Shown piece by piece: positions 1 through 44,937 of a stretch of 64,000 nt of DNA. Origin of the DNA: Candidatus Binatia bacterium (GTDB lineage Bacteria > Desulfobacterota > Binatia > HRBIN30 > JACQVA1); the NCBI GenBank assembly GCA_035541895.1, contig DATKMK010000066.1:31004-95003 (forward strand), given 5' to 3'. Under the pieces are notes generated by a model. That model saw only the letters and a list, made by a program, of their open reading frames with translations. It ran no database searches and had not been told where the DNA came from. Every line of letters begins with the position of its first letter. Positions within the stretch are counted from its first letter, which is position 1. The position numbers were made by a program, and so were the translations under genes.

Positions 1-1746
1 CTCTCCGCGCTCTTTCTTCTTCTCATCTTCGGATTGTCGGCGCTCGCGGCGATCTATGGCAGCGAGTATGTGCGGCACTACGAGCACAAGAAGTGGTTGG
101 GACCGCCGTGGTTCTTCTTCAATCTGCTGGCTGCGAGCATGGCCATGGTTGTCATCGCCCGCAACGGCTTGCTGTTCCTGATGGCGTGGGAAGTCATGGC
201 GCTCGCGTCATTCTTCCTGGTGATGTTCGACGATGAGAGCGAGGCGGTGCGCGCGGCGGGGTGGACGTACCTGGTGGCGACCCATTTGGGAACCGTCTTC
301 CTGCTGGTGTTCTTCGTATTGGCGGGGCAGGCGAGAGGCTCGCTCGATTTCGATCGCCTCGGTGCCGGATCGGCGCCGGCGAGTGTGCTGTTTCTGCTCG
401 CCGTCGTCGGGTTCGGAACCAAGGCCGGGTTCATGCCGTTCCACGTCTGGTTGCCCGAGGCGCATCCCGCGGCGCCGAGCTACGTCTCGGCATTGCTGTC
501 TGGCGTGATGTTGAAGACCGGGGTGTACGGTTTGCTGCGCACGCTTACGTTGCTCGGACCGCCGCCGGCGTGGTGGGGCTGGCTCCTGTGCGGAATCGGA
601 TTGACCTCCGGGATCGGCGGCGTGCTGTTCGCGCTGGCGCAACACGATGTGAAGCGGCTGCTGGCGTACAGCAGCGTCGAGAACATCGGCATCGTCACAC
701 TCGGCATCGGCATCGGTGTGGTCGGACTCAACGCCGATGTTCCGGCCGTGGCAGTGTTGGGGTTCGTCGGCGGACTCATCCACATCGTGAACCACGCCGT
801 CTTCAAGGGCTTGCTGTTTCTGGCTGCGGGGGCCGTCGTGCAGGCGACGGGCACGCGCGAGATCGATCGGCTGGGCGGTGTGATGAAGTTAATGCCCTGG
901 ACCGGCTCCGTGTTCCTGGTCGGGGTCGTGGCGATCTGCGGTCTGCCGCCGCTGAACGGCTTCATTGGCGAGCTGTTGATCTACCTCGGCGCGTTGCGCG
1001 GTGTGGTCACGCCGGGGTCGGTGGTTGCCGTTCCCGCGCTCGTGGTGCTGGGTGGCCTCGCCCTCATTGGCGGGCTCGCGACCGCCGCGTTTGCCAAGGT
1101 GTTCGGCGTTGTCTTCCTCGGCGCCGCGCGCAGCGAGGTTGCGCACGCGCACGAACCTGGGCTCACGATGCGGGCACCGATGATTGCGCTGGCTGTCGGG
1201 TGTTTGCTGATCGGTTGCCTTGCGCCGACACTGGTGCGGGTGTTGGTTCCGGTAGTCGCGGGTGCGACGGGACTCCCGATCGGGCGAGTCGCAGCGAATC
1301 TGTCGCCGGCACTCTCGTCGCTCCGGGCGGTCGTCTCGTGTGCGCTGGGTTTGCTGGTGACGGTGGCGCTGCTCGTTGGATTGCGCCAGCGTCTGCTGGC
1401 CGGGCGACACGTCGAACGTGGCCCGACTTGGGATTGTGGTTACGCGCAACCATCCGCGCGCATGCAATACACGGCCTCGTCATTCGCTCAGCCGCTGACC
1501 GAGTTGTTTGCGGCGCTCCTGCAGACACGCCGACAGATCGTGACCCCGGCGGGACTATTCCCGCGCGCAGCGTCGCTGCAAACCAGCACGCCCGACATCT
1601 GCACGACGCGCGTCTACCAGCCCGTGTTCGGCGCCGTCGGCCGTGGCCTGTTTGCGCTGCGATGGCTGCAGCACGGGCGGGTGAATTTGTACGTGCTGTA
1701 CATCGCGCTCGCGTTGTTGGTGCTGTTGATGTGGAAGCTGGGGTAG
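1..1746 (+). CDS. Antiporter-like membrane subunit (HyfB/NuoL-like) of a group-4-hydrogenase-related complex; 5' end outside window
   Basis: The frame is open from base 1 (LSALFLLLIFG... runs into the 34..1746 ORF, whose listed start is a TTG). Polytopic protein with the NuoL/M/N-HyfB/D/F signature stretch GFGTKAGFMPFHVWLPEAHPAAPSYVSALLSGVMLKTGVYG. First gene of a tightly spaced co-directional hyf-like operon. Confidence 0.85.
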   Translation, partial: LSALFLLLIFGLSALAAIYGSEYVRHYEHKKWLGPPWFFFNLLAASMAMVVIARNGLLFLMAWEVMALASFFLVMFDDESEAVRAAGWTYLVATHLGTVFLLVFFVLAGQARGSLDFDRLGAGSAPASVLFLLAVVGFGTKAGFMPFHVWLPEAHPAAPSYVSALLSGVMLKTGVYGLLRTLTLLGPPPAWWGWLLCGIGLTSGIGGVLFALAQHDVKRLLAYSSVENIGIVTLGIGIGVVGLNADVPAVAVLGFVGGLIHIVNHAVFKGLLFLAAGAVVQATGTREIDRLGGVMKLMPWTGSVFLVGVVAICGLPPLNGFIGELLIYLGALRGVVTPGSVVAVPALVVLGGLALIGGLATAAFAKVFGVVFLGAARSEVAHAHEPGLTMRAPMIALAVGCLLIGCLAPTLVRVLVPVVAGATGLPIGRVAANLSPALSSLRAVVSCALGLLVTVALLVGLRQRLLAGRHVERGPTWDCGYAQPSARMQYTASSFAQPLTELFAALLQTRRQIVTPAGLFPRAASLQTSTPDICTTRVYQPVFGAVGRGLFALRWLQHGRVNLYVLYIALALLVLLMWKLG

Positions 1747-1750
1747 GTGC

Positions 1751-2662
1751 ATGACCCTCGCGCCGATTGTTCAGGTCGGCCTGCCGCTGCTGCTCGCCCC
1801 GATGCTGCTCAGCGTCATCAACCGCACCAAGGCCGTCGTGGCCGGTCGCAACGGTCAACCGTGGTTGCAGCCGTACCTCGACGTACTCAAACTCTTGCGT
1901 AAAGGCGCGGTGTACAGCGGGACGACGACCTGGGTGTTTCGCGCCGGCCCGACGGTCGGCGTGGCGGCGCTGCTGGTGTCGACCGCACTCGTCCCGTTCG
2001 GCGGTCGGCCCGCGTCCGTGGCGTTCTCCGGCGATGTGATCGTGCTCGCGTATCTCCTCGGCCTCGCGCGCTTCTTCACCGTGATTGCCGCGCTGGACAC
2101 CGGTTCCAGTTTCGCGGGCATGGGCGCGAGCCGCGAGGTCACATTTTCCACACTCGCCGAGCCCGCGTTGTTTCTCGCGTTGGCTGCGATCGCGCGGCAG
2201 ACCAGCAGCCTGTCGCTGTCGGCGATGTACGGCGGCGTCGGCGTGGGAACGTGGGCGGTTGCCGCACCCGCGCTTGCTCTTGTGACGGGCGCGTTGCTGG
2301 TGGTGTTCCTCGCCGAGAACGCACGCATCCCGGTGGACGATCCGACGACCCATCTCGAGCTGACCATGATCCACGAAGTGATGGTGCTCGACCACGGCGG
2401 CCCGGACTTGGCGTTCATCGTGTACGGCAGTGCACTCAAGTTATGGGTGTTGGGCGCACTGTTAGTCGGCTTGGCGATTCCCGCACGCACGGGCAACGCA
2501 TGGCTCGACGGCGCGGCGGCCTTGGCTGGTATGGCCGGGCTGGCGATGGCGACCGGACTGATCGAGTCATCCATGGCCCGCTGGCGCCTGGTGCGAGTGC
2601 CGCAGTTGCTGGTGTCGGCGTGCGTCCTGGCGGCACTGGCGCTGCTGTTGATGCTGCGGTGA
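1751..2662 (+). CDS. NuoH/HycD/HyfC-like membrane subunit
   Basis: 303-aa polytopic protein. The N-terminus LLLAPMLLSVINRTKAVVAGRNGQPWLQPYLDVLKLLRKG fits the HycD/HyfC/NuoH pattern. Starts 5 nt after the previous stop. Confidence 0.85.
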   Translation: MTLAPIVQVGLPLLLAPMLLSVINRTKAVVAGRNGQPWLQPYLDVLKLLRKGAVYSGTTTWVFRAGPTVGVAALLVSTALVPFGGRPASVAFSGDVIVLAYLLGLARFFTVIAALDTGSSFAGMGASREVTFSTLAEPALFLALAAIARQTSSLSLSAMYGGVGVGTWAVAAPALALVTGALLVVFLAENARIPVDDPTTHLELTMIHEVMVLDHGGPDLAFIVYGSALKLWVLGALLVGLAIPARTGNAWLDGAAALAGMAGLAMATGLIESSMARWRLVRVPQLLVSACVLAALALLLMLR

Positions 2663-2666
2663 TCGG

Positions 2667-3320
2667 ATGAGCACGTGGGTCGATACGCCGCTGGTGTTGG
2701 TTGCGCTCACGGGCCTGCTGCTGGTGGCGTCCAGCCGGCTGACGCGCTGCATTCGTATCGTCGCATTCCAAGGCGCGCTCTTGGGCGTGATCACTGTCGC
2801 GGTGCATCAGCACGAATTTCTCGCCCGCCCACTGATGCTGGCCGCGGCGATTGTGGCGTTGAAGGGGGCGGTGTTCCCGTGGTTGCTGTCGCGGGTGTTG
2901 CGGGAAGCGGATGTTCGACGCGAAGTCGAGCCGATCGTCGGCTACATCAGCTCGTTGCTGCTCGGCACGCTGATGCTGGCAATCTCGTTCCGGTTGAGTG
3001 CGCAGTTGCCGTTGCCGACGCCCGCGGTGTCGAGTTTGGTGGTGCCGGTTGCGCTGTTCACAACCTTCATCGGCCTGTTCCTGATCGTGAGCCGTCGAAC
3101 CGCGTTGATGCAAGTGCTGGCGTACGTGGTGCTCGAAAACGGCATCTACGTCTTCGGCGTCGGATTGGTGCAAGGCACGCCGATTCTCGTCGAGTTGGGG
3201 GTGCTGCTCGATGTTTTCGTCGCGGTGTTCGTGATGGGCATCGCGATTTTTCGCATCAATCGCGAGTTCGATCACATCGACACCGAGCAGCTCACGTTGC
3301 TCACCGATTGGATGTCGTAA
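2667..3320 (+). CDS. HyfE-like small membrane subunit (NuoK-related)
   Basis: 217 aa, about the size of E. coli HyfE, entirely hydrophobic helices. Sits between the HyfC-like and HyfF-like genes as in hyf operons. Confidence 0.7.
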   Translation: MSTWVDTPLVLVALTGLLLVASSRLTRCIRIVAFQGALLGVITVAVHQHEFLARPLMLAAAIVALKGAVFPWLLSRVLREADVRREVEPIVGYISSLLLGTLMLAISFRLSAQLPLPTPAVSSLVVPVALFTTFIGLFLIVSRRTALMQVLAYVVLENGIYVFGVGLVQGTPILVELGVLLDVFVAVFVMGIAIFRINREFDHIDTEQLTLLTDWMS

Positions 3321-4789
3321 TGCTCCTCGCGCTGCTGCTGATCCCAACGCTGGCGGCCATCGTTGCGTACGGTGTCACCAACGACGCGGTGCGGCGGCTG
3401 ATGTTGGTGACCGCCGTGGCGGCGCATGCGAGTGTGGTCGCCGCAACTTGGGCGACTCCACCGGCGTCGCTCTTCGGCGGCTGGTTGCGCTTGGATGCGC
3501 TCGGGCGATTGTTCTTGAGCATCACCGCCGCGCTCTCGCTACCGGCGGCGGTGTACAGTGTCGGCTACTTGCAACGCGAGAGTCGCGGCGTGCGACGCGA
3601 CTTCGAGGAAGGGCTGTGGTTCGCCAACGCGCCGGAAGCCACGTTCACCAGTTGCCTGCTGTTGTTTCTCGCCGCGATGACGTTGGTGACGATCAGTCAT
3701 CGTTTCGGCCTGCTGTGGGTGGCGATCGAAAGCACGACACTAGCGAGCGCGCCGTTGATATACTTTCACCGCCATCACCGCTCGCTCGAAGCCACCTGGA
3801 AGTATTTGCTGATTTGTTCGGTCGGCATTGCGTTGGCCTTGCTGGGCAATTTCTTTCTGGCCGTGGCGGCGTCGAATCACGGCGGTGCGCCGATTCCGCT
3901 GGTCGTGCGCGACCTGACTGAGCGCGCCGCCGAGCTGCACCTGCCCTGGTTGCGGGCGGCGTTCATCCTCTTGCTGGTCGGCTACGGTACCAAAATGGGA
4001 TTGGCGCCACTGCACACCTGGCTGCCCGACGCGCACAGCGAAGCACCGTCGCTGGTCTCGGCGCTGCTGTCGGGCGCGTTGTTGAACTGCGCCTTCCTCG
4101 GCGTCTTGCGCGCGCAACAGGTCTTGGTTGCGGCGGGGCAGGGCGCGTTCGGTCAAGACCTCCTGGTGAGCTTCGGCATCTTGTCGATGGCGGTCGCCGC
4201 GGTCTTCGTGGTTGGGCAGGCGGATTACAAGCGGATGTTGGCGTATTCGAGCGTTGAACATATGGGCGTGCTGGCAGTGGGCGTGGGAGTCGGTGGGGCG
4301 GCGACGTTCGGAGCGTTGCTGCACGCGGTCAACCACTCGCTGACGAAGGCGATGCTATTTCTCGTTGCGGGTAATATCCTGGCGACCTATCGCACGAAAT
4401 CGGCTCTGGAGGTTCGCGGCGTCTTGCGCGTGTTACCGGCGTCGGGAGCCCTGTGGGTGGCGGGCTTTCTTGCGATCACCGGCTCACCGCCGTTCGGTCC
4501 GTTTCTCAGCGAATTCACCATTCTCAAGGGCGCGCTGGCTCAGGGACGGGTCGTGGTTGCCGGTCTCTACCTCGCGTTGCTCGCGGTCGTCTTTGTGGGC
4601 ATGGCGACGGTGGTATTGCGGATGGCGCACGGGGCGCCGAGCGCTCCAACGGAAGACACGCCGGATCGTGAGCCGCTGTTGGCCATCGTGCCACCGGCGA
4701 TCATTGCGGTGATCGTCCTCGTGCTGGGCGTGTACATTCCCGGTCTGCTCCGGGATGCCGTGGCGGCCGCGGCCGGAGCGCTGGGATAG
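3320..4789 (+). CDS. Antiporter-like membrane subunit (HyfF/NuoN/M-like)
   Basis: The ATG at 3320 overlaps the TAA of the preceding gene (TAATG) and is in frame with the longer 2675..4789 ORF. Contains GYGTKMGLAPLHTWLPDAHSEAPSLVSALLSGALLN and KRMLAYSSVEHMG, typical of proton-pumping Nuo/Hyf subunits. Confidence 0.85.
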   Translation: MLLALLLIPTLAAIVAYGVTNDAVRRLMLVTAVAAHASVVAATWATPPASLFGGWLRLDALGRLFLSITAALSLPAAVYSVGYLQRESRGVRRDFEEGLWFANAPEATFTSCLLLFLAAMTLVTISHRFGLLWVAIESTTLASAPLIYFHRHHRSLEATWKYLLICSVGIALALLGNFFLAVAASNHGGAPIPLVVRDLTERAAELHLPWLRAAFILLLVGYGTKMGLAPLHTWLPDAHSEAPSLVSALLSGALLNCAFLGVLRAQQVLVAAGQGAFGQDLLVSFGILSMAVAAVFVVGQADYKRMLAYSSVEHMGVLAVGVGVGGAATFGALLHAVNHSLTKAMLFLVAGNILATYRTKSALEVRGVLRVLPASGALWVAGFLAITGSPPFGPFLSEFTILKGALAQGRVVVAGLYLALLAVVFVGMATVVLRMAHGAPSAPTEDTPDREPLLAIVPPAIIAVIVLVLGVYIPGLLRDAVAAAAGALG

Positions 4790-4794
4790 TCAAC

Positions 4795-6306
4795 ATGGCG
4801 TTGTACACACTGCGCAACGGCGAGAGCGCCGAGGTGCTGGACATTCCGCGGCTGACGATCGCACAGTTCCGCACGACGATCATTGACGAAATCGCTGCCG
4901 GCGGTCGACTGGCGGCGTTCTTCGGCCGGGCGATCGCTTCGTCGCTCCAGGTGGTCGCGGTCGTGGCGCGCGGCGACCAGGGGACGCTGGGGGTCTGCAC
5001 CACGGAGGTCGATGACGCCTATCCGGCGCTCACGCCGGAGTGTCCCCAGGCGCATTGGTTCGAACGCGAAATCGCCGAGCAGTTCGGCGTGCGACCCGAC
5101 GGCCATCCGTGGCTCAAACCGATTCGGTTTCACCGCGCCCGTCGACCTGGCCACGACGCGTGGCACCGCAGCGACGCGGATACGATCGCGCCGAGTGTCA
5201 CCGATTTTTTCCGCGTCCAAGGACAAGAGGTGCACGAAGTTGCCGTCGGGCCGGTACACGCCGGGGTCATCGAGCCCGGCCATTTCCGCTTTCAATGCCA
5301 CGGCGAGCAGGTGCTCCATCTCGAAATCTCCCTGGGCTATCAGCATCGCGGCGTCGAGCGCGCGCTGGTTGGCGGGCCGAGCAAGCGAACGATTCATTAC
5401 ATGGAGACGCTCGCCGGCGACACCTCGATCGGGCACGTTACGGCGTATTGCGAAATAGTTGAGGCGCTCACGCGTGCGCGGGTGTCGGCGCGCGCGCAAG
5501 TATTGCGTGCGATCGCGCTGGAACTGGAGCGGTTGGCCAACCACACCGGCGATCTCGGCGCGCTTGCCGGCGACGTCGGATTCCTGCCCACGGCGGCGTA
5601 TTGCGGGCGCATTCGCGGCGATTTCCTCAATCTGACCGCGTTGCTCTGCGGCAGTCGATTTGGGCGTGGCCTCGTCCGACCCGGCGGCGTCGCATTCGAC
5701 GTGGATGACGCGCGGGTGGCGCAATTGGGCGAACGCCTCGATGCCGCCTTTGTCGACGCTGCCAGCGCCGTCGATCTCTTATGGAACACGCCCTCGGTGC
5801 CGGCCCGCTTCGAACAAGCCGGCGTGGTTGACCGCGCCGACTGCGAGGCGCTGGGGCTCGTTGGTCCGACGGCACGCGCGTGCGGCGTCGAGCGCGACGT
5901 CCGACATGAATTCCCGTCCGGCATCTATCGATTTGCGCAAATTCCGCTGTCGACCTGGCAGACCGGCGACGTGTTTGCGCGCGCATACGTGCGCTGGCTC
6001 GAACTGCAACGTTCGGTGACGTTCATCCGCGAGCAGCTCGGTATCCTGCCCGAGGGCGTCGACCGGGTGAAGCCCGCGCCTCTGGTTGCAAACCGAATCG
6101 CTGTCTCGCTGGTCGAAGGGTGGCGAGGTGAAATCTGTCACGTCGCCATGACCGACGACGACGGGCGCTTCGTCGCATACAAGGTGGTCGACCCGTCGTT
6201 TCACAACTGGATGGGGCTGGCGATGGCGCTCCGGGATCAACCGATTTCGGATTTTCCGCTCTGCAATAAGAGCTTCAATTTGTCGTATTGCGGCCACGAT
6301 CTCTGA
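4795..6306 (+). CDS. NuoC+NuoD / HycE-like large subunit homologue lacking the [NiFe] cysteine ligands
   Basis: NuoC-like N-terminus (WFEREIAEQFGVRPDGHPWLKPIRFH) followed by a NuoD/HycE-like body (VGPVHAGVIEPGHFRFQCHGEQVLHLEISLGYQHRGVE). The L1 position reads LAGDTSIGH instead of RxCGxCxxxH. The C-terminus reads DFPLCNKSFNLSYCGHDL instead of DPCxxCxxR. Confidence 0.85.
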   Translation: MALYTLRNGESAEVLDIPRLTIAQFRTTIIDEIAAGGRLAAFFGRAIASSLQVVAVVARGDQGTLGVCTTEVDDAYPALTPECPQAHWFEREIAEQFGVRPDGHPWLKPIRFHRARRPGHDAWHRSDADTIAPSVTDFFRVQGQEVHEVAVGPVHAGVIEPGHFRFQCHGEQVLHLEISLGYQHRGVERALVGGPSKRTIHYMETLAGDTSIGHVTAYCEIVEALTRARVSARAQVLRAIALELERLANHTGDLGALAGDVGFLPTAAYCGRIRGDFLNLTALLCGSRFGRGLVRPGGVAFDVDDARVAQLGERLDAAFVDAASAVDLLWNTPSVPARFEQAGVVDRADCEALGLVGPTARACGVERDVRHEFPSGIYRFAQIPLSTWQTGDVFARAYVRWLELQRSVTFIREQLGILPEGVDRVKPAPLVANRIAVSLVEGWRGEICHVAMTDDDGRFVAYKVVDPSFHNWMGLAMALRDQPISDFPLCNKSFNLSYCGHDL

Positions 6307-6313
6307 GGACGCT

Positions 6314-7096
6314 ATGCTGAGAGTTCTGCTCGCCCGTCTTCACCAAGGGCACCGCACAATCGCCTTCCCAGTCGATGAGCCGGCAATGCCGGACCGCTTT
6401 CGCGGGGTGCCGGTATTGAACCCAAGCCAGTGTCCCGTTGGTTGTCGTGACTGCGTCGATGCCTGCCCCACCGGGGCGGCGATGAGCCGCGATGGCGGCC
6501 TGCAACTCGATCTCGGCCGCTGTCTGTTCTGCGCGGATTGTGCCGATGCATGCTCCGAGGGCGCGCTCGCGTTTAGCCGCGACTATCGTCTGAGCACCCG
6601 CGCGCGCCACGATCTCGTCCTGAGTGGACAGACGCTTCGGCTCGCCGAAGCGGTCGATGCCAAGACCCAGCGCCTGTTCGGCCGGTCTCTCAAACTGCGG
6701 CAGGTCAGTGCGGGGGGCTGCAATGCGTGCGAAGCCGACGTCAACGTCCTGAGCACCGTGGCCTTCGATCTCGGTCGCTTCGGCATTCAATTCGTCGCCT
6801 CGCCGCGCCATGCGGATGGCCTGCTGATCACCGGACCGGTGACCGAGAACATGCGGCTCGCGCTGCGGAAGACCTACGACGCCGTGCCGGCGCCGAAACT
6901 CGTGATCGCCGTCGGTGCATGCGCGATCTCGGGCGGCCCGTATCGCGATCATCCTGAAGTGCACAATGGTGCTGACGCCGTCGTCCCGGTCGACCTGTAC
7001 GTGCCCGGCTGTCCGCCGCACCCGATTAGCATTCTCGATGGATTGCTGCGGCTCCTGGGGAGAATCACGCCGGACGAGGCACGTGACCTGAAGTGA
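6314..7096 (+). CDS. Fused 2x[4Fe-4S] ferredoxin-like (HycF/NuoI-like) and NuoB/HycG-like small subunit
   Basis: The N-terminal part has CPVGCRDCVDACP and CLFCADCADAC. The C-terminal part has the NuoB/HycG pattern GGCNACE ... ASPRHADGLLITGPVT ... VGACAISGGP ... PVDLYVPGCPPHP, with all four cluster cysteines present. Confidence 0.8.
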   Translation: MLRVLLARLHQGHRTIAFPVDEPAMPDRFRGVPVLNPSQCPVGCRDCVDACPTGAAMSRDGGLQLDLGRCLFCADCADACSEGALAFSRDYRLSTRARHDLVLSGQTLRLAEAVDAKTQRLFGRSLKLRQVSAGGCNACEADVNVLSTVAFDLGRFGIQFVASPRHADGLLITGPVTENMRLALRKTYDAVPAPKLVIAVGACAISGGPYRDHPEVHNGADAVVPVDLYVPGCPPHPISILDGLLRLLGRITPDEARDLK

Positions 7097-35409: not shown

Positions 35410-36753
35410 CTACTCGATCCCGTACCGCTTGCGCTTGCGCCACAGCGTCGTGGGGTTGATGCCCAGTCGGGCCGCGGCTTCTTCGAGCGTGGCGGCGTCG
35501 GTGAGGACTTGCTGGATGTGGCGGCGCTCGATGTCTTCGAGCGAGAGTGATGGATCGGCCACGGGTGCCGCCGCGACGCGCGGCGGCGCGGCGAGGCGAT
35601 CGGGCAGATCCTCGACTTGAATCAAATCGCCGCGCGACAGCACGACGGCACGCTCCAGCGCGTTGACCAGTTCGCGAATGTTGCCCGGCCACGGATAGGC
35701 CAACAGCGCTGCGCGGGCGTCGTTGCTGAGTTGGAGCGCCGCGCGGCGGTGGCGCGCGCACAACGTCGCGAGCACATGATCGATCAGCGCGGGTAGGTCC
35801 TCGCGACGCTCGCGCAACGGCGGCAGGCGAATCGCGACGACGTTGAGACGGAAATAGAGATCTTCGCGGAAGCGGCCGACCCGCACGTCGGCGTCGAGAT
35901 CGCGATTGGTTGCCGCAATGATGCGCGCGTCGACCTCGATGGTTTCGCTCGACCCCACACGCTCGAAGCGATGCTCTTCGAGGAACCGCAGCAACTTGGC
36001 TTGCAGCTCCGCCGGCAGCTCGCCGACCTCATCGAGGAACACGGTACCGCCGCCCGCGGCTTCCAGCCGTCCGGGCTTGTCCTTCCACGCGCTGGTGAAC
36101 GCGCCCTTCATGTGCCCGAACAGCTCGCTTTCGAGCAGATGCTCGGCCAGCGTCGTGCAACTGATCGTGATGAACGGCGCCGCCGCGCGCGCGCTCCAAC
36201 TGTGAATCGCCGCGGCCAGGACGTTCTTCCCCGTACCGCTTTCCCCCGTCAGCAGCACCGTGACCGACGACTCGGCCACTTGCCGCGCGGTGGCGAGCAC
36301 CCGCTGCATCGACGGACTGCTGGAGTCGAGCAGCGCCGGCTGGTCGATGGCGGATCGCAGCACGCGATTCTCGCGGCGCAGCGCCAGCACTTCCAAGACG
36401 CGCTGGAGCAGCAGCCCAATTTGATCGAGCGAGAACGGCTTCACCAAATAATCGTAAGCGCCCGCGCGCATCGCTTCGACGGCTTGCGGCACCGTGGCGT
36501 ACGCGGTCATCAGCACCACCACCACGTCAGGCTGGCGGCGTCGCATCTCGCGCAGCAGCGCCAGCCCATCCATGCCGGCCATGCGCACGTCCGACAGCAC
36601 GATGTCGACCGCGCCGCGGTCCAGCGCCGCCAGCGCCGCCGCGGCGTCTTCGGCGGTTTCGGCGCCGTGACCAACGCCACGGACGTAGGTTGCAAGATGC
36701 GTCCGAATATTTTTCTCGTCGTCGACGATGAGGACGTTGGCCATGGGTGTCAC
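35410..36753 (-). CDS. Sigma-54-dependent response regulator (NtrC family) encoded after kdpD
   Basis: Receiver (VLIVDDEKNIR ... DVRMAGMDG), AAA+ core (LLTGESGTGKNV, ESELFGHMKGAFTSA, FLDEVGELP, RIIAATNRDL) and a C-terminal HTH (AAARLGINPTTLWRKRKRYGI). The GTG at 36753 overlaps the kdpD stop (GTGA); an alternative ATG lies at 36744. Confidence 0.85.
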   Translation of the reverse strand: MTPMANVLIVDDEKNIRTHLATYVRGVGHGAETAEDAAAALAALDRGAVDIVLSDVRMAGMDGLALLREMRRRQPDVVVVLMTAYATVPQAVEAMRAGAYDYLVKPFSLDQIGLLLQRVLEVLALRRENRVLRSAIDQPALLDSSSPSMQRVLATARQVAESSVTVLLTGESGTGKNVLAAAIHSWSARAAAPFITISCTTLAEHLLESELFGHMKGAFTSAWKDKPGRLEAAGGGTVFLDEVGELPAELQAKLLRFLEEHRFERVGSSETIEVDARIIAATNRDLDADVRVGRFREDLYFRLNVVAIRLPPLRERREDLPALIDHVLATLCARHRRAALQLSNDARAALLAYPWPGNIRELVNALERAVVLSRGDLIQVEDLPDRLAAPPRVAAAPVADPSLSLEDIERRHIQQVLTDAATLEEAAARLGINPTTLWRKRKRYGIE

Positions 36754-39700
36754 CCGCGGGGCAGCTCGATGGTGAAGCGACTGCCGCGACCGACTTCGCT
36801 GTCGAGATGAATGCGCCCGCCGTGGGCTTGCACGATGTCGCGCACGATGGCCAATCCCAACCCCGCCGACCCGATATCACCACCGTCGGCGGACTGCACG
36901 AAGCGCTCGAAGATGCGCTCGCGTTGATCGGCTGGAATCCCGGGACCGGAATCGCTGACGGCGAGCAGCACGGCGCCGTCTTGGGGTAAGGCGTCGATCT
37001 GGACCCGGCCGCCGTCGGGCGTATACCGCAGCGCATTGGAGAGTAGATTGGACAACGCCCAGGTCAGCTTGATCTCGTCTCCCGCGATCGTCAGGCCGTG
37101 GTCCGCTACCACCGTGTCGAGCGCGATATGTTTGTCGCGTGCTTGCGGCGAGAAGATTCTGACCACTCGCGGGATGATGTGACGGAGGTCGACGTTGCGA
37201 CGATCGAGGGCGATCGTCATCGCACGTGCGCGGGACAAGTCGAGCAGGCGTTGCGCCACTTCCTGCAGGCGCGCGACGTCCTCGTGCGCGGTGTCGAGCA
37301 ACGTTCTTTGGTCGGCGGTCAGGACGGGGCCGTCGCGCTGCAACAACTCGAGCGCCATCCGCAACGAGGTGATAGGCGTTCCCAGCTCGTGCGAGAGAGT
37401 GGCGATCAAGGCTTCGCGGCGAGATTCTTGATCGCGCAGGTAGGTCACGTCCTGCAAGCCGAGGATCAGTCCCGCCGGCGAGCCATCGGCGGCGCGGAAG
37501 GGCGTCAACCGCAGCACGAAATAGTGGTCGCGCCCGCGCATGAACAAAGTAATCTCAACCCGTTCCGCCTCGCGTTCGGGGTGCGTCAGAAACTCGTGCA
37601 CGGCGGATCGCAGCCGGAGGTAGTGCGGATGATGTGTACCGAGGGACTCGAATTGGCGGCCGAGCAACTCGGCGCGGTCGACTTCGAGGATGGCACAGGC
37701 AACCTCGTTGACGTGGGCGACGACGCCGGCCGGATCGAGGACGATCAATCCGTCCTCGATGGCTTCGATCACCGCTTCGGTCTTGGCCTTCTCGGCGAGC
37801 ACGACATCGACGCGGGTGCGCTCGATGGCGATCGCGGCCTGGCGCGCGAGCGCTTCGAGGAGTTGGCGCTGATCGAGTGCCAGGCCGCTGCCGGTCGTGG
37901 GCGTTTGGAGTGCGAGCACGCCGACCGCGCCGCGCGCCGTACTGAGCGGCACGTGGAACCAATCGCCGCCGGGCAACGTGTCGGTACCGCGCCCCGCGGG
38001 TTGATTGTGCTCCCACACCCACGTGGCGGCGGCGCGCTCCGCCGCCGTCAGCTCGGTTTCGGATGGGTCGACCGCGCGAGTAAGCAAGCGGCCGCCTTCG
38101 GGCAGCAGCACGGCAACGGCGCCGTGAAACAATTGTCCGACGTGGCGCACGATGATGGGGAGGAGATCCTCGATCCCCGCCGCCCCGGCGAGCAGCTTGC
38201 TGAATTCGTACAGCGCGGCGGTGCGCTCTTCGCGGCGTCGCGCCATGACCGCTTGATCACGAATGCGCGCGGTCAGGTTGCTGGTGATCACGGCGACCAC
38301 CAAGAACACCAACAGCGACAGGATGTCCTGCGGCTTCGTGATGGTGACGGTGTACAGCGGCTCCACGAAGAAGACGTCGTAGATCAGCAAGCTGACGACC
38401 GCGGCGAGGATTGACGGACCGAGACCACCGATGACGGCGCTGAACAAGACGGCGGTGAGAAACACCAAAGCGTAGTCGGTGAGCGAGATCGCGAGCTGCA
38501 GGCCTTTGGCGACGACGCCGGCGATGGCAACGAAGCCGAGCGCTGAAAGATAACGATTCATTGGAATCGCGGGCGCCGCCGTCGGAGCGGCTCGAGGTTC
38601 GGGCTCGGCGGCTTCACTCGAGATGACCCGCACCTCGATGTGGCCGCTGCGACGGATCACTTCGTCCACCGGCGAGCGCCGGCGCAGTTCGAGCCAACGC
38701 GGGCGTAGCGGTTTGCCGAGAATGATCTCGGTGACGTTGTGCCGTTCGGCGAAGCGGATCAACTCCGTGGCGACGCGTTCGCCGGCGATCGTCGCGACTT
38801 CACCGCCGAGCTGCTCGGCAAGTTTCAACATCTTCGCTACGCGATCGCGCTCGTGCTCCGGCCGGCGATGGAACGCCGAGGTCTCGACGAACACCGCCAA
38901 CCAGTCGGCGTGACGCGCGTCGGCGACTCGCCGCGCGGTGCGGATCACGCGCTCCGACATCCGGCCGCCGCTGATGCAGGCCAGAATCCGCTCGGTGACC
39001 GGCCACACGCCCGGGATGGCGTGCGCCTGCATGTACTCGCGCATCTGGTCGTCGACGCGTTCGGCGGTCTGGCGCAGTGCCAACTCACGCAAGGCAGTGA
39101 GGTTGCCGGGACGGAAATAGTTGCGAATCGCGCGCTCGGCCGCCGCGGGCATGTAGACTTTGCCCTCCTGCAGGCGCTGCAGCAGGTCTTCGGGCGTCAC
39201 ATCGACCAGCTTCACCTCGTCGGCGCGCTCGAAAAAGCTGTCGGGGACGGTTTCGCGGATGCGGATGCCGGTAATCTGCGCGACGACGTCGTTGAGGCTT
39301 TCGAGATGCTGAATGTTGACGGTGGTGTAGACGTCGATGCCGGCATCGAGCAGCTCTTCGACGTCGGAGAAGCGCTTCGGATGGCGACTGCCGGGTGCGT
39401 TGGTGTGAGCGAGTTCGTCGACCAGCACGAGCTGCGGCCGGCGGGCGAGGATCGCGTCCAGGTCCATCTCTTCGAGAAGGGTTCCACGATACTCGATATG
39501 CTGGCGCGGCATCACGTCGAGCCCTTCAAGTAGGGCCTGGGTTTCGGCGCGTCCGTGAGTTTCGACCACGCCGATTACCACATCGACGCCTTCGCCGCGC
39601 CGCTCGTGCGCGGCGGCGAGCATCGCGTAGGTTTTTCCCACGCCCGGTGCGGCGCCGACAAAGATCTTCAGGCGACTGCGGGACTCCTTCTTCGCCGCCT

Positions 39701-39755
39701 GCAGGAGCGCCTCGGGCGACGGCCGGCGCTCGTCTCCGTTGAGTTGCGTCACCAA
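36750..39755 (-). CDS. kdpD: Sensor histidine kinase KdpD (KdpD N-domain, Usp, TM, GAF/PAS, HisKA, HATPase)
   Basis: LKIFVGAAPGVGKTYAML, Usp part ERILACISGGRMSERVIRTARRVADARHADWLAVFVETS, four TM helices, H-box LSHELGTPITSL, G-boxes DSGPGIP and GLGLAIVRDIV. The start is the TTG at 39755 or the GTG at 39752. Confidence 0.9.
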   Translation of the reverse strand: MVTQLNGDERRPSPEALLQAAKKESRSRLKIFVGAAPGVGKTYAMLAAAHERRGEGVDVVIGVVETHGRAETQALLEGLDVMPRQHIEYRGTLLEEMDLDAILARRPQLVLVDELAHTNAPGSRHPKRFSDVEELLDAGIDVYTTVNIQHLESLNDVVAQITGIRIRETVPDSFFERADEVKLVDVTPEDLLQRLQEGKVYMPAAAERAIRNYFRPGNLTALRELALRQTAERVDDQMREYMQAHAIPGVWPVTERILACISGGRMSERVIRTARRVADARHADWLAVFVETSAFHRRPEHERDRVAKMLKLAEQLGGEVATIAGERVATELIRFAERHNVTEIILGKPLRPRWLELRRRSPVDEVIRRSGHIEVRVISSEAAEPEPRAAPTAAPAIPMNRYLSALGFVAIAGVVAKGLQLAISLTDYALVFLTAVLFSAVIGGLGPSILAAVVSLLIYDVFFVEPLYTVTITKPQDILSLLVFLVVAVITSNLTARIRDQAVMARRREERTAALYEFSKLLAGAAGIEDLLPIIVRHVGQLFHGAVAVLLPEGGRLLTRAVDPSETELTAAERAAATWVWEHNQPAGRGTDTLPGGDWFHVPLSTARGAVGVLALQTPTTGSGLALDQRQLLEALARQAAIAIERTRVDVVLAEKAKTEAVIEAIEDGLIVLDPAGVVAHVNEVACAILEVDRAELLGRQFESLGTHHPHYLRLRSAVHEFLTHPEREAERVEITLFMRGRDHYFVLRLTPFRAADGSPAGLILGLQDVTYLRDQESRREALIATLSHELGTPITSLRMALELLQRDGPVLTADQRTLLDTAHEDVARLQEVAQRLLDLSRARAMTIALDRRNVDLRHIIPRVVRIFSPQARDKHIALDTVVADHGLTIAGDEIKLTWALSNLLSNALRYTPDGGRVQIDALPQDGAVLLAVSDSGPGIPADQRERIFERFVQSADGGDIGSAGLGLAIVRDIVQAHGGRIHLDSEVGRGSRFTIELPRG

Positions 39756-39764
39756 TCTAGTGTC

Positions 39765-40340
39765 TCACCGTGCCGCCGCGGCGTCCAGCGCCAGGTTGAG
39801 CTGCAGCACGTTCACGCGCGGCTCGCCGAGGAAGGCGAGCTGGCGGCCTTCGATGTGTTGCGTCACCAGTGCCTTCACGCGCGCCTCGTCGAGACCCCGG
39901 AGGCGGGCCACGCGTGGCACTTGGTAGTACGCCGCCGCCGGACTGATATGCGGATCGAGTCCGCTCCCGGATGCCGTCACGAGGTCCACCGGGATCGGGC
40001 CGGTCTGATTCGGGTCCGCGTCACGTAACGCGCTCACGCGGCCCTGAACCGCGTCATGCAAACCGTCGCTCAGCGGTCCCAAATTCGAACCGGACGACGC
40101 GCCGGCGCTGTAGGGCGAAGGCGAGGTCGCCGACAAGCGACCCCAGAAATATTTGGGGTCGTCGAACGGTTGTCCGATCAACGACGAGCCGATGACCTTG
40201 CCGTCCTTGGTGATCAGACTGCCCGCGGCTTGGCTGGGAAAGAGGACTTGGGCGATGCCGGTCACCCCCAGCGGGTAGACGACGCCGGTCAACACGGTCA
40301 GCGCGGCCAGCATGACAATCGCGGTTCGTAGTTCTTTCAT
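39765..40340 (-). CDS. kdpC: K+-transporting ATPase subunit C
   Basis: [24 protein letters not shown] ... GSLI ... [25 protein letters not shown] ... [16 protein letters not shown]: the KdpC pattern; 191 aa. Confidence 0.9.
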
Positions 40341-40350
40341 CGATATCTCC

Positions 40351-42438
40351 TCAGGCCAATCCCAGAGCGACCAGGATTATGTCGATCAGCTTGATGCCGA
40401 CGAACGGCGCGACGATTCCGCCGAGACCATAGATGAGCAGATTGTCGCGCAGCAGCGCGGCCGCCGGCACAGCACGATACCGCACTCCGCGGAGCGCCAA
40501 CGGGATGAGCGCGACGATGATCAGTGCGTTGAAGATGACGGCCGACAGAATCGCACTCTGAGGCGTTGCCAGCCCCATGACGTTGAGCATGCCGAGTACC
40601 GGATACGTCCCGGCGAAGGCGGCGGGGATGATGGCGAAGTACTTGGCGACGTCGTTGGCGATGCTGAAGGTCGTGAGCGCGCCGCGCGTCATGAGCAGTT
40701 GCTTGCCGATTTCCACGATCTCGATCAGCTTGGTCGGGTTGGAATCGAGGTCGACCATGTTGCCGGCTTCTTTCGCCGCCTGGGTTCCGGTGTTCATGGC
40801 CACGGCGACATCGGCTTGCGCCAGCGCCGGCGCGTCGTTGGTGCCGTCGCCCGTCATGGCGACCAGCCGTCCGCCCTTTTGATAGTCGCGAATGAGGTCG
40901 AGCTTTCGCTCGGGCGTGGCCTGCGCGAGGAAGTCGTCGACGCCGGCCTCGGCGGCGATGGCCGCAGCGGTGAGGGGGTTGTCGCCGGTGATCATCACGG
41001 TTTTGATGCCCATCCGCCGCAACTCGGCAAAGCGGTCTTTGATCCGCGTTTTGACGATGTCCTTCAACTGGATCACGCCCAGCACGTGTGCGCCTTCGGC
41101 CACAACCAACGGCGTGCCGCCCTCGCGCGCGATGATCTCGACGGACGTGCGCACGGCGACCGGGAAGCGGCCGCGCAAACTGGTGACGTACTCCTCGATG
41201 GCGTCGGCGGCACCCTTGCGCACTTGGCGGCCGTTGAGGTTGACGCCGCTCATGCGGGTTTGGGCGCTGAATGGGACGAACTCCGCGCCCAAGGCGTGCA
41301 CCTCGCGTTCGCGTATGCCGTACTTCTCTTTGGCGAGCACGACGATGCTCCGGCCCTCAGGCGTCTCGTCGGCGAGCGAGGCGAGCTGGGCAGCGTCCGC
41401 GAGTTGTTCGGCGTTCACGCCGTCGGCGGGAATGAAGGCCGTGGCTTGGCGATTGCCCAGGGTGATGGTGCCGGTCTTGTCGAGCAGCAGCACGTCGACG
41501 TCGCCGGCGGCCTCCACGGCGCGCCCGGAAATGGCGATGACATTGGCTTGAATCATGCGGTCCATGCCCGCGATCCCGATGGCGGAGAGCAGTCCTCCGA
41601 TCGTCGTCGGAATCAGACAGACGAGCAGCGCGGCGAGCACGGTGACGGTGATCGGGACACCGTGTCCGGCCTCGTTGACCGCGTAGATCGAAAACGGCAA
41701 CAGCGTGACGGTTGCCAACAAGAAGATGATGGTGAGCGCGGCGAGCAAGATGTTGAGGGCGATCTCGTTCGGGGTTTTCTGGCGGCGCGCGCCTTCGACC
41801 ATCGCGATCATGCGATCGAGGAACGTTTCGCCCGGATCGCTGGTGATGCGGACGACGATCCAGTCGGACAGCACACGGGTGCCGCCGGTCACGGCGCTGC
41901 GATCGCCGCCGGCTTCGCGGATGACCGGGGCGCTTTCCCCGGTGATGGCGCTCTCGTCGACTGAGGCGATGCCGATGGAGATCTCGCCATCGCTGGGGAT
42001 GAAGTCACCGGCGGGCACGAACACGAGGTCACCTTTGTGCAGCGACCCACTCGCGGTGGTGGTGAAACGTGCGGCGTCGGGCTTGAAACGATTGGGGTCG
42101 GGCGCGTGGTCGAGTTTCTTGGCGGTGATCTCGCGCCGCGCTTTGCGGAGCGCATCCGCCTGCGCTTTGCCGCGACCTTCGGCCATGGCTTCGGCAAAGT
42201 TGGCGAAGAGCACGGTGAACCACAGCCAGAGCGAGACGGCGAGGATGAATCCCGCGGGCGCTTCGCCGTGCCCACCGAGCGCTTGGAAGTACAGGCATGT
42301 CGTAATGATGCTGCCGACCAGCACCACGAACATGACCGGGTTCTTGAACTGATGGCGCGGATCGAGCTTCAACAACGACGCGACGAGCGCGCCCCGGACA
42401 ATCTCGGCATCAAACAACGGACGAGCTTTGGTCGACAT
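40351..42438 (-). CDS. kdpB: K+-transporting P-type ATPase subunit B
   Basis: [11 protein letters not shown] phosphorylation motif, [27 protein letters not shown], and the N-terminus [21 protein letters not shown], typical of KdpB. Confidence 0.95.
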
Positions 42439-42454
42439 GAACGAATCCTTTGGG

Positions 42455-44257
42455 TTACGCCAGCATCATCAAGTGTTCGACGATCGGTCCCAGCGCGAGC
42501 GCTGGAATGAACGTGAGCGCGCCGACGATGATCACCACCCCGATCAGCATGACGATGAACAGCGGCGTGTGCGTCGGTAGGGTTCCGGGACTCACCGGCA
42601 CCACTTTTTTCTGTGCCAGCGAGCCGGCGATCGCGAGCGTCGGAATCGCCAGCCAGTAGCGCGCGAACAGCATCGCGATGCCGCCGGTCAGATTGTAGAA
42701 GGGCACGTTGGCGTTCAACCCGGCAAAGGCGCTGCCGTTGTTGTTGCCCATCGAACTATAGGCGTAGAGAATCTCGCTGAAGCCGTGGACGCCGGAATTC
42801 AGCCGGCTGGCGACGCCCGCGGGCACGACAACCGCGAGAGCCGTGAAACCGAGGACGATCACCGGTGGGATCAGGATGACAAGCGACGCCATCTTCATCT
42901 CATAGGCTTCGATCTTCTTGCCGAGATACTCCGGCGTACGCCCGACCATCAGGCCAGCGACGAACACGGCGACGATCGCGAACATCAGCATGCCGTACAG
43001 CCCGGAGCCCACGCCGCCGTAGATCACCTCGCCGAGCTGCATCATGAACATCGGGACCAGTCCGCCCAGTGGAGTGAACGAAGCGTGCATCGAGTTGACG
43101 GAGCCGTTGGACGCGGCGGTAGTCGCCGTCGCCCACAAGGCGGAGTTGACGACACCGAAGCGAACTTCCTTGCCTTCCATGTTGCCGCCGGCTTGGAGCG
43201 TGCTGGCGGTCTGATCGGCGCCGAGGGCCGCGAGCTGCGGAGTGCCCCGCTGCTCGGACCAGACGCACAGGCCGAGGAGAACGACGAAAATCACCGTCAT
43301 GGCGGCGAGGACTGCCCATCCCTGACGGGTGTCGCCAACCATCTTTCCAAACGTGTAACAAAGCGCCGCCGAGATCACCAAGATTCCCAACGCCTCGATG
43401 AAGTTGGAGAGCGGCGTTGGGTTCTCGTAGGGATGCGCCGAGTTGACGTTGAAGAAGCCGCCGCCGTTGGTGCCGAGTTGCTTGATCGCGACCTGCGAAG
43501 CGGCCGGGCCCATCGGCAGCGTCTGTTCGGTCAACGGCACCGTTTCGGTTTTCGGCTGACCATGCTCGTCGAGGACCGCGTTGCCGTCGGCATCCTTGAC
43601 GGGGCTGCTGTAGGAAGTCGGCTGAACCAGCGTGACCGTCGCATACGGACTGAAATTCTGCACCACGCCCTGCGAAACCTGGACGAGCGCCCAGAGAATC
43701 GACAACGGCAGTAGGATGTAGAGTGTGGTGCGCGTCAGATCGACCCAGAAGTTGCCGATAAACTTGCTAGTCGTTTGACGCAAACCGCGAATGAGCGGAA
43801 GCAGAACCGCAATGCCTGCAGCCGCTGAGACGAAGTTCTGCACGTTGAGGCCGAGCATCTGCGTGAGATAGCTCATCGTCGATTCGCCGCCGTAGCCCTG
43901 CCAGTTGGTGTTGGTGGCGAAGCTGACCGCGGTGTTGAACGACGAGTCGGATGTGACCGCGCCGAGACCCTGCGGATTGAGCGGCAGAATGCCTTGGAGG
44001 CGCTGCAACGCATAGACGACGAGCAGGCCGAGCAAATTGAAGATCATCATCGCAACGGCATACGTTCGCCACGTCATTCCCTGCTCGGGATCAACGGCGC
44101 AGAAGCGATAGATCAGACGTTCAATCGGGCCGAGCACGCGATCGAGGATCATCGGCGGCCCGTCGAAAACACGCGCCATGTAAGTGCCAAGCGGCCGCGC
44201 GAGGCCGATCAGCACGACCATGTAGAAAACGAGTTGCAGGTAACCGTTGATTGTCAT
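42455..44257 (-). CDS. kdpA: K+-transporting ATPase subunit A
   Basis: The ATG at 44257 gives [31 protein letters not shown], then [10 protein letters not shown] and [10 protein letters not shown] selectivity-filter-like motifs. The ORF-track extension to 44689 runs through kdpF and the promoter. Confidence 0.9.
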
Positions 44258-44346
44258 CAAAACCACTCCGGCTTGAGCAAGGCGATGAACAGATAGACAA
44301 GTAACGCGAGCGAGATCACCCCGCCCACTGCATACAGCAGCGTCAT
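44257..44346 (-). CDS. kdpF: K+-transporting ATPase subunit F (29 aa)
   Basis: Translated by hand: MTLLYAVGGVISLALLVYLFIALLKPEWF. It ends in the KdpF-like L.YL..AL..PE.F pattern. The TGA overlaps the kdpA ATG (TGATG), and AGGAGG lies 8 nt upstream of its ATG. Below the ORF-track size cutoff. Confidence 0.8.
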   Translation of the reverse strand: MTLLYAVGGVISLALLVYLFIALLKPEWF

Positions 44347-44358
44347 GTGAACAGCCTC

Positions 44359-44439
44359 CTACAGTTTCTCGCAGAGGAGGATGAGTCCCCACGAGAGCGC
44401 GAAAAACGCGGCCGTGACCCCGAGATATAGAGCGTCCAT
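44359..44439 (-). CDS. Second tiny hydrophobic ORF (26 aa) at the head of the kdp operon
   Basis: Translated by hand: MDALYLGVTAAFFALSWGLILLCEKL. GAGGAGA lies 6 nt upstream of the ATG. Its TAG overlaps the kdpF Shine-Dalgarno (TAGGAGG). It lies immediately downstream of the sigma-54 promoter. Confidence 0.45.
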   Translation of the reverse strand: MDALYLGVTAAFFALSWGLILLCEKL

Positions 44440-44463
44440 GTGGTCTCCTCTCGCAGGTCGGTG

Positions 44464-44479
44464 AGCAGTGAACATGCCA
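44464..44479 (-). promoter_or_regulatory. Sigma-54 (-24/-12) promoter of the kdp operon
   Basis: The minus strand reads cTGGCATGttcaCTGCTcac against the consensus TGGCACG-N4-TTGCW. The invariant GG and GC are at the exact consensus spacing. It lies about 25 nt upstream of the first small-ORF ATG. The operon ends with a sigma-54-dependent activator gene. Confidence 0.6.
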
Positions 44480-44937
44480 GTCGTGCAGATTGATGAAGAT
44501 CGCAACTGTCCCGCGCCTGAGTAATGCAAAGTCTGCAGACTGCAAGAGCGAGTCGTGCGCGATGCATTCCAGGCGGTGCGAACCGCGCGACGTGGGAATT
44601 TGCGCTACTGAGATTTGTGGGCGCGGGCAGCTCGCCACGCTACGGGAGCCGACGCTGCGATGAGCAAGAACACGAGGATCATGGCTCACCGGTTACCCAC
44701 GTCGCCATCTCCTGCTGCGTCGTGGTCGCGAAAAGTTGCTGCCTCGCGCCGTCCGGCAACTGTGCGTCTTGCAGTTGCGCGCTCCCTCAAACCGCACGGT
44801 CGCATCCGATCCTCCTGAAAAGGCGCTTCCGATCGATGGGCGAGCGCGCTTGGTACGCTTCCTGCCATTGCGGATGCTCCAAGTGATCGCACAACCACTC
44901 GTGAGGTCGACCTCACAACAAGAAAAGGGAGAAAGCC

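Follow-up and report, generated by a model that had tools for sequence, protein, structure and literature searches.

An Ehr-type operon of a Candidatus Binatia bacterium with a ligand-less hydrogenase-like large subunit and a conserved upstream HTH-EIIA gene

Introduction

The first 7,096 nucleotides of a 64-kb stretch of DNA from a Candidatus Binatia metagenome-assembled genome (this whole stretch is called the window below; the operon under study is window 1..7096) carry six genes whose products resemble subunits of hydrogenase-4 and formate hydrogenlyase (FHL). The large subunit, L, has lost all four cysteine ligands of the [NiFe] centre, whereas its Fe-S partner, S, is intact. We conclude with high confidence that the operon encodes an energy-converting hydrogenase-related (Ehr) complex and not a hydrogenase. 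We further read it as a six-subunit, nickel-free descendant of the Hyf/FHL-type group 4 [NiFe] hydrogenases that works as a self-contained redox-driven pump, a reading to which we assign a probability of about 55%. Since Ehr is an already described and widespread class, the operon is a new member of it. A seventh gene, directly upstream of the six, encodes a helix-turn-helix (HTH) protein fused to an EIIA domain.

In Geobacter the complex was described as "Ech-hydrogenase-related", with subunits EhrA, EhrC, EhrL, and EhrS (PMC7894505). The later name was used for Margulisbacteria, Saganbacteria, and Melainabacteria (PMC6349859) and for the Candidate Phyla Radiation (PMC7304191). About half of the Nitrospirales genomes carry Ehr (PMC12342949, PMC10284858), and HydDB removes these sequences as non-hydrogenases (PMC5037454). 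Ehr complexes lack the NiFe ligands, and their function is called unknown in print (PMC7894505, PMC6349859, PMC7304191, PMC12342949, PMC10284858, PMC5037454).

Results

The large subunit has lost the [NiFe] ligands

Domains were assigned with Pfam and NCBIfam profiles, and homologues of known structure were sought by phmmer against all PDB sequences. The features of the large subunit are as follows (window coordinates).

4795..6306, + strand: large subunit L, with a NuoC-like N-terminal domain and a HycE/NuoD-like domain (503 aa; Pfam Complex1_30kDa and Complex1_49kDa)
5413..5424, + strand: remnant N-terminal ligand motif A207-G208-D209-T210, replacing C-G-x-C (alignments to HycE and relatives)
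6283..6294, + strand: remnant C-terminal ligand motif S497-Y498-C499-G500, replacing C-x-x-C (alignments to HycE and relatives)

The best PDB match to L was HycE (7z0s_E, 2.8e-46), followed by MbhL (2.9e-30) and Thermus Nqo4 (1.3e-28). None of the NCBIfam equivalog models attained its curated cut-off for L, which is thus no standard NuoD or HycE. In the alignment to E. coli HycE, "etlAgdTsighvtay" pairs with "drvCgiCgfahstay" and "nksfnlSy" with "igsldpCy", so that the four [NiFe] cysteine positions are occupied by A207, T210, S497, and G500. The original prediction, made from the sequence without database searches, had aligned L by eye and placed A and T at the N-terminal and S and G at the C-terminal CxxC positions. 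This register holds: aligning 4795..6306 to HycE put no cysteine at any of the four positions, and the closest relatives that retain four cysteines (P0251 and P0260) gave the same pairing. Their VCGACSFSH and DFPLVNKSFNLCYSCTDR pair with LAGDTSIGH and DFPLCNKSFNLSYCGHDL of L, respectively. Because these alignments are free of gaps, the register is not an artefact of alignment by eye. L ends where mature hydrogenase large subunits stop and has no cleavable extension. It cannot hold NiFe(CN)2CO through the canonical four cysteines.

The loss is shared by nearly the whole family. More than 8000 homologues of L were found, the top 120 of them at 68-79% identity. When 1.84 billion cluster representatives were searched exhaustively with L, 6152 relatives came up, 907 of them (clusters at 50% identity) below 1e-30; 84 full-length representatives out of the best 150 cluster matches were aligned. 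Cysteine is absent from positions 210, 497, and 500 in 82 of the 84, meaning that three or four ligands are gone; all four cysteines are present in just two, P0251 and P0260. Among the 82 ligand-less representatives, position 207 is Ala in 38, Ser in 29, and Cys in 9, and position 210 is Ser in 38 and Thr in 32 and never Cys, while S497 and G500 are each found in 80. G208 (77 of 82), D209 (74), and Glu160 (74) are conserved as well, the last within a retained hydrogenase-type GPxHxGxxEPGHFRF loop; Asp209 is a conserved residue specific to the ligand-less family. In 39 close homologues (68-79% identity) the ligand pairs are missing as in L, and the last 18 residues of L together with G208, D209, and H214 are invariant.

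One might take the absence of the four catalytic ligands as a sign that a hydrogenase operon is in decay and no longer functional, a reading whose probability we regard as negligible. The six open reading frames (ORFs) are intact with coupled starts, and the same substitutions and long invariant motifs recur across many phyla and thousands of sequences; on these conservation data, a pseudogene was rejected. Because the same substitutions are conserved throughout the family and the motifs are invariant in close homologues, the ligand loss is ancient, fixed, and under purifying selection, and is not decay.

L does have other cysteines: Cys499 (6289-6291) lies between S497 and G500, and Cys490 (6271-6273) lies nine residues earlier. 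Both are invariant in the close, Binatia-like subfamily. Along with the Cys207 of nine representatives and the retained loop with Glu160, they could be taken to indicate that the complex is still a hydrogenase whose metal centre sits on unconventional ligands (e.g., Cys490, Cys499, Asp209, His501, and Cys207 in some relatives). We consider this very improbable. All [NiFe] hydrogenases that we know of use four Cys/Sec thiolates, and in the wider family Cys490 is found in only 57 and Cys499 in only 43 of the 82 representatives, with positions 210, 497, and 500 never Cys. A hydrogenase with alternative ligands was rejected on the ground that the extra cysteines are not family-wide. The Pfam model NiFeSe_Hases has no match to L but is on record for the four-cysteine relatives, no maturation gene lies in the window or recurs at 80 related loci (see below), and H2 does not raise ehr expression in Nitrospira moscoviensis (PMC12342949).

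An AlphaFold2 model of L (mean predicted local distance difference test score, pLDDT, 73.8) had HycE (7z0s_E) as its top Foldseek match (E=3.6e-24, TM-score 0.69), followed by E. coli NuoCD.

The Fe-S subunit is intact

S is a 260-aa fusion (6314..7096) with Pfam Fer4 dicluster and Oxidored_q6 domains. Its two halves are:

6314..6658, + strand: HycF/NuoI-like half of S, with two [4Fe-4S] motifs, C40/C44/C47/C51 and C70/C73/C76/C80
6659..7096, + strand: HycG/MbhJ/NuoB-like half of S, with the proximal [4Fe-4S] ligands C136/C139/C203/C233

Residues 5-118 match HycF (7.2e-15) and MbhN (2.3e-14), and the HycG-like half matches MbhJ (2.2e-33) and HycG (3.8e-32). In the HycF-like half, each of the eight cysteines is retained by 47-52 of 54 orthologues. 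The HycG-like half has four, which align with the ligands of MbhJ and HycG and are conserved in 47-50 of 54. All three [4Fe-4S] motifs are strongly constrained. The first pair of the proximal motif is of the hydrogenase type, CxxC as in MbhJ and HycG, and not the tandem CC of NuoB. The HycF-like half is the probable electron entry point.

Loci were surveyed in one genome per GTDB species, using the best 80 of at least 600 matches (52-68% identity). The HycF-HycG fusion is kept in 77 loci. The locus of the four-cysteine relative P0251 (L089 394-4950) has the HyfE-HyfF-L order but encodes HycF (114 aa) and HycG (158 aa) separately; the fusion therefore seems tied to the ligand-less family.

Operon layout and membrane subunits

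All six ORFs lie on the + strand, separated by -1 to 7 nt. The four that precede L encode membrane proteins.

1..1746, + strand: HyfB/HycC-like antiporter-type membrane subunit (residues 76-656 of 656; the 5' end lies outside the window)
1751..2662, + strand: HyfC/HycD/NuoH-like membrane subunit, the anchor of the peripheral arm (Pfam NADHdh, 2.9e-28)
2667..3320, + strand: HyfE-like small membrane subunit, NuoK-like in its C-terminal part (NCBIfam, Pfam, and position)
3320..4789, + strand: HyfF-like second antiporter-type membrane subunit (NCBIfam hydrogenase 4 subunit F, 5e-109; Pfam Proton_antipo_M)

Base 1 of the window is codon 76 of the 656-codon hyfB gene. The full gene was located at 4982-6952 of L001, a public contig that reaches upstream of the window and on which window base 1 is position 5207. 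HyfB matches Pfam Proton_antipo_M and the NCBIfam model for hydrogenase 4 subunit B (2.4e-173). Its top PDB match, HycC (7z0s_C, 6.1e-80), covers the full length, including a C-terminal extension that carries an invariant WDCGY segment. HyfC matches HycD (2e-25) and MbhM (1.9e-18), and E. coli NuoH at just 5.5e-4. For HyfE, the hydrogenase 4 membrane subunit model of NCBIfam gave 6.2e-24, which is below its cut-off, and Pfam Oxidored_q2 gave 4.3e-5; its position is kept in 70 related loci. The start codon of hyfF, which was confirmed, is an ATG that shares 1 nt with the stop of hyfE (TAATG), and the top PDB match of HyfF is MbhH (4.4e-31). Neither a sigma-70 promoter nor an intrinsic terminator was found downstream of the S gene.

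Glu139, Lys216, Lys344, Glu399, and Cys554 of HyfB are invariant in 56 orthologues. In HyfF, Lys225 and Lys343 are invariant, Glu137 is found in 41 of 43 orthologues, and Glu398 in 39 of 43. From their motifs we take the conserved Glu and Lys residues of both proteins to be the equivalents of the Glu of transmembrane helix (TM) 5, Lys of TM7, Lys of TM8, and Glu of TM12 in NuoL/M/N of complex I. These ion-transfer residues are strongly constrained. The domain assignments and ORF spacing agree with the original description of a tightly spaced operon for HyfB-, HyfC-, HyfE-, HyfF-, HycE/NuoCD-, and HycF+HycG-like proteins, and the four Fe-S cysteines that it had credited to the NuoB-like partner are C136, C139, C203, and C233 of S.

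Comparison with hydrogenases, complex I, and MBS

The solved structure closest to the operon is the E. coli FHL complex (7Z0S), which provides the best match for L (HycE), HyfB (HycC), and HyfC (HycD), and matches both halves of S, HycG being second to MbhJ. The operon shares with FHL and hydrogenase-4 (Hyc, Hyf) the NuoC-like N-terminal domain on the large subunit and the hyf B-C-E-F order. It differs in lacking the NiFe ligands, the cleavable extension, HyfA/HycB, HyfD, formate dehydrogenase H, hycI, and hyp, and in having HycF and HycG fused. HycC has Leu where HyfB of the operon keeps the TM7-type Lys216.

The four-cysteine relatives P0251 and P0260 are 36-38% identical to L and share with it the GPVHAGIIEPGHFRF loop and a DFPLxNKSFNL..Y...D C-terminus; P0251 also shares the gene order noted above. 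They differ in keeping CGxC and CxxC and in matching NiFeSe_Hases, and possibly belong to HydDB group 4f.

Complex I (NuoB, CD, H, I, K, L/M/N) and the Pyrococcus MBH and MBS complexes have a similar architecture, with a peripheral Fe-S arm, a NuoH-like anchor, and antiporter-like pump subunits. The NuoEFG module (N-module) of complex I is absent from the operon, and HyfC shows very little similarity to NuoH. In the alignment with Nqo4, L has Ile159 and Gly208 opposite the quinone ligands His38 and Tyr87, whereas Asp139 is kept as Asp260; Glu160 and Asp209 of L are each one residue from the quinone-ligand positions. Judged from these sequence matches, FHL/Mbh is a closer relative of every subunit of the operon than complex I is. 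The original prediction had presented Ehr as intermediate between membrane hydrogenases and complex I. Nothing in the comparison supports that placement: the NuoD quinone ligands are absent, and S is of the CxxC type.

The Mrp small subunits of MBH and MBS are absent, and none of the six genes is MnhE/F/G-like. This bears on the reading of the operon as a reductase of sulfur or polysulfide akin to MBS/Mbx; its substrate would be reduced directly by the proximal cluster. Among the NiFe-free relatives, MBS is, to our knowledge, the only characterised one to work with neither quinone nor H+, and there are indeed matches of L to MbsL (6u8y_L, 5e-16) and of S to MbsJ (6u8y_J, 1.1e-21). These matches are far weaker than those to FHL and Mbh, and the hosts of Ehr-type operons are mainly soil and freshwater mesophiles, aerobes among them. 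With the extra Mrp-type subunits missing as well, we hold such a reductase to be quite unlikely.

The G. sulfurreducens Ehr (GSU0739-45), likened here by its description, has the same subunit set, with a NuoL-like EhrA, a HyfE-like EhrC, EhrL, and EhrS (PMC7894505). The Nitrospira Ehr, formerly a "putative formate hydrogenlyase", lies near group 4f and lacks the CxxC motifs (PMC12342949, PMC10284858); it too is likened by description, no Nitrospira locus being among the best 80.

Distribution and missing partner genes

The B-C-E-F-L-S order is found in about 60-80 of the best 80 loci, with the fused S kept almost everywhere. These loci come from Verrucomicrobiota, Planctomycetota, Geobacteraceae (including Geomonas limicola), Acidobacteriota including Geothrix paludis, Gemmatimonadota, Spirochaetota, Omnitrophota, Chlamydiota, and others. 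The Geobacteraceae loci L027, L034, L036, L037, and L053 have the C-E-F-L-S order and the ligand-less motifs, with L 57-59% identical to that of the operon (58% in Geomonas limicola, L053, which has the same ligand-less motifs). Several Geobacteraceae loci (L027, L036, L037, L053, and L070) differ in that the best HyfB match and the EIIA gene are located about 3 kb further upstream or are inverted, which suggests extra or rearranged genes. In Verrucomicrobiota/Opitutia-type loci (L045, L051, L058, L065, and L077), a divergent EIIA-like gene (24-29% identity) is located between the HyfB-like gene and hyfC.

When all other ORFs within +/-10 kb of the 80 loci were clustered into families, no family recurred in more than 6 of the 80. 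Genes for hyp, hycI, or formate dehydrogenase were found neither in the 64-kb window nor in the 10 kb upstream, nor did they recur in the 80 loci; their absence after the operon, already remarked in the original prediction, thus extends across the window. A hycB/hyfA connector or nuoEFG was likewise neither found in the window nor recurrent near the 80 loci. The Ehr module is self-contained, without a conserved dehydrogenase, hyp, or fdh neighbour.

This result bears on whether the operon encodes the membrane module of an FDH-Ehr (FDH, formate dehydrogenase) or another dehydrogenase-linked complex, with the partner encoded elsewhere in the genome. Such a complex was proposed for Margulisbacteria and Saganbacteria by authors who call the idea untested (PMC6349859), and all G. 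sulfurreducens Ehr subunits are more abundant with formate (PMC7894505). Given that neither the window nor the neighbourhoods of the 80 operons hold, or recurrently hold, an FDH, a HycB/HyfA-like connector, or a NuoEF-like gene, we judge a dehydrogenase partner to be unlikely.

A conserved HTH-EIIA gene and a repeat upstream of the operon

The DNA upstream of base 1, where the original prediction had suggested looking for further subunits or a partner dehydrogenase, contains the 5' end of hyfB and a gene for an HTH-EIIA protein, and no dehydrogenase within 10 kb.

L001 4286-4981, about 0.2-0.9 kb before window base 1, same strand as hyfB: HTH-EIIA gene, 231 aa (HTH_17 and PTS_EIIA_2)
L001 4217-4252 (= L087 9932-9967): four TGTCCA-like hexamers in 10-bp phase, in the HTH-EIIA promoter region

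The TAG stop of this gene abuts the hyfB ATG, making it the seventh gene of the operon. Its product is an excisionase-family HTH (HTH_17) fused to the phosphotransferase system (PTS) domain PTS_EIIA_2 (Pfam PF00359). It is nearest to PtsN/FruA, with a match to the PtsN model TIGR01419 (4e-16) that is below cut-off. The PTS_EIIA_2 fold is predicted from sequence and has its His in the G-x-A-I-P-H motif; all 27 sequences compared have this residue, His136 in GIAIPH, and His183 is invariant too.

Among the 51 loci with enough upstream DNA, 38 have a homologue of the gene, in 25 of them directly upstream on the same strand, and in three of three further contexts picked from homologues of the HTH-EIIA protein itself, the gene adjoins hyfB. 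On apparently matched contigs the HTH-EIIA protein is 83-89% identical, versus 70-75% for L, and in distant phyla the two values are similar to each other; the HTH-EIIA protein is at least as conserved as the enzyme.

TGTCCA-N4-TGTCCA (with at most 2 mismatches) is present in 17 of 35 upstream regions from several phyla, versus 0.47% of background 200-nt windows. The repeat mostly starts 48-51 nt (about 49 nt) before the HTH-EIIA start codon. Elsewhere in the window it is not enriched (5 matches versus 3.4 expected), and no other regulon members were found there. The repeats are likely an autoregulated operator bound by the HTH domain of the HTH-EIIA protein, and this conserved upstream, Ntr-like protein probably controls ehr expression.

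PtsN proteins control K+ transport. The genetic coupling of a PtsN-like protein to the operon also counts in favour of a reading in which no substrate is turned over. The Fe-S chain would then sense redox state and gate a cation/proton transporter of the Mrp type, which would serve ion or pH homeostasis and be controlled by PTS-Ntr. L has no recognisable set of acceptor-site ligands, the operon has no partner gene, and a P-type cation ATPase and MgtC are encoded near it, with kdp and kup further off. These ion-transport neighbours are not conserved at other loci, however, and the conservation across phyla of 12 cysteines, the GD[ST] motif, and Glu160 looks catalytic. We know of no precedent in the superfamily for gating by a redox sensor, and we consider this reading improbable.

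Neighbouring genes and assembly

The P-type cation ATPase and MgtC genes are located upstream of the operon (L087 3680-6394 and 8593-9069). At 35410-45294 and 47333-49477 the window holds a potassium-homeostasis block, with kdpA, kdpB, kdpC, a kdpD-type kinase (GAF/PAS), a sigma-54-dependent response regulator, and a P-II-like gene, followed by a Kup-type transporter. That such genes lie near the operon fits a PtsN-like regulator and is suggestive; as said, they are not conserved neighbours at other loci.

The rest of the window encodes polysaccharide genes, an acyl-AMP ligase, a rhamnosidase, CstA, a chromate transporter, a LytTR two-component system, HisRS, and AspRS. Two ORFs have no Pfam family on record: a 503-aa ORF straight after the His_kinase/LytTR pair (55257-56768, + strand) and a very large ORF at 59220-63851 (- strand), which is listed with 1543 aa and has 1454 aa on the public contig.

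The public contig, deposited in ENA (ERZ27256510), and the window differ at HyfC residue 18 (Met versus Leu) and HyfE residue 45 (Ala versus Val) (window 1751-3320 versus L001 6957-8526), whereas L and S show no differences. Another contig of the same sample (k141_3228278) carries the 3' part of the window. From these residue differences and the split over two contigs, the window derives from a longer, closely related assembly.

Discussion

The operon combines the features by which Ehr complexes are defined (PMC6349859, PMC10284858, PMC12342949, PMC5037454): a group-4-like L without CxxC pairs, an intact NuoB/HycG-type S, and NuoH-like and Mrp-antiporter-like membrane subunits. The features of a group 4 [NiFe] hydrogenase are missing, since there is no four-cysteine L1 (RxCGxC)/L2 (DPCxxC) set and no hyp, hycI, FDH, or HycB gene nearby. 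The original assignment to an Ehr-type complex, and not to a hydrogenase, is thus supported by the ligand loss, the intact Fe-S subunit, and the Hyf-like membrane subunits. The syntenic orthologues in Geobacteraceae, the family in which Ehr was named, lend indirect support to a place within the Ehr clade.

Since both the Fe-S cysteines and the pump residues are conserved, it is reasonable to regard Ehr as a redox-driven (or redox-reversible) ion pump, at the probability given in the Introduction. In the mechanism that we propose, a soluble low-potential carrier would dock on S at its HycF-like half, as happens in Ech, Mbh, and NDH-1. If, as found, the module is self-contained, its donor has to be a soluble carrier; by analogy this may be reduced ferredoxin, for which we would give slightly less than even odds. 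Electrons would pass from the two HycF-type clusters to the proximal cluster of S and on to an acceptor in the pocket that once held NiFe, where L, S, and HyfC meet. The conserved Asp209 and Glu160 could supply protons to this pocket. The resulting charge or conformational change would drive H+ or Na+ translocation via HyfC, HyfE, HyfB, and HyfF. The reverse direction, in which an ion gradient drives ferredoxin reduction, is equally possible. A membrane quinone is favoured as the acceptor by analogy and energetics, though we regard it as a doubtful candidate.

Several points weigh against the pump reading and its parts. In the literature searched (subscription papers lay outside it), we found no functional or structural study of Ehr, and no Ehr complex for which an activity, a donor, or an acceptor is established. 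The case for ferredoxin as the donor is drawn from analogy. A quinone acceptor is weakened by the Ile159 and Gly208 of L in place of His38 and Tyr87, and by HyfC being far closer to HycD/MbhM than to NuoH; quinone synthesis is reported to be missing from other lineages with Ehr (PMC6349859). The AlphaFold2 model of L has low confidence (pLDDT <50) precisely in the segments that form the pocket (132-162 and 482-503). Finally, the HTH-EIIA gene is missing from 13 of the 51 loci and is therefore not obligatory.

Concerning regulation, the HTH-EIIA protein would bind TGTCCA-N4-TGTCCA in the promoter of its own gene, and phosphorylation of His136 would be the signal to which it responds. In a broader form of this idea, Ehr is part of a dedicated, phylum-spanning unit of the PTS-Ntr type, in which the HTH-EIIA protein binds an operator at a fixed position, and phosphorylation of His136 couples the expression of Ehr (or its activity, by direct binding) to carbon, nitrogen, or potassium status. 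We put this forward tentatively, as somewhat less probable than its opposite. No published link between an EIIA protein and Ehr was found in the literature searched, as delimited above.

Few members of the complex I/hydrogenase superfamily that lack a known reaction are as widespread as Ehr, and its hosts belong to abundant phyla of soil, sediment, and freshwater, including nitrifiers and metal reducers. The operon described here is nothing new in kind. The comparison does sharpen the question of what Ehr does: the module is self-contained and hydrogenase-like in all its subunits, has gained a conserved Asp209 beside the former metal site while lacking the quinone ligands of complex I, and usually comes with a PtsN-like regulator and an operator-like repeat. 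The HTH-EIIA regulator and the TGTCCA repeat can be tested in the cultivable hosts Geobacter, Geomonas, and Geothrix. If the PTS-Ntr coupling is true, it would be the first experimental handle on when Ehr is used, and hence on its substrate.

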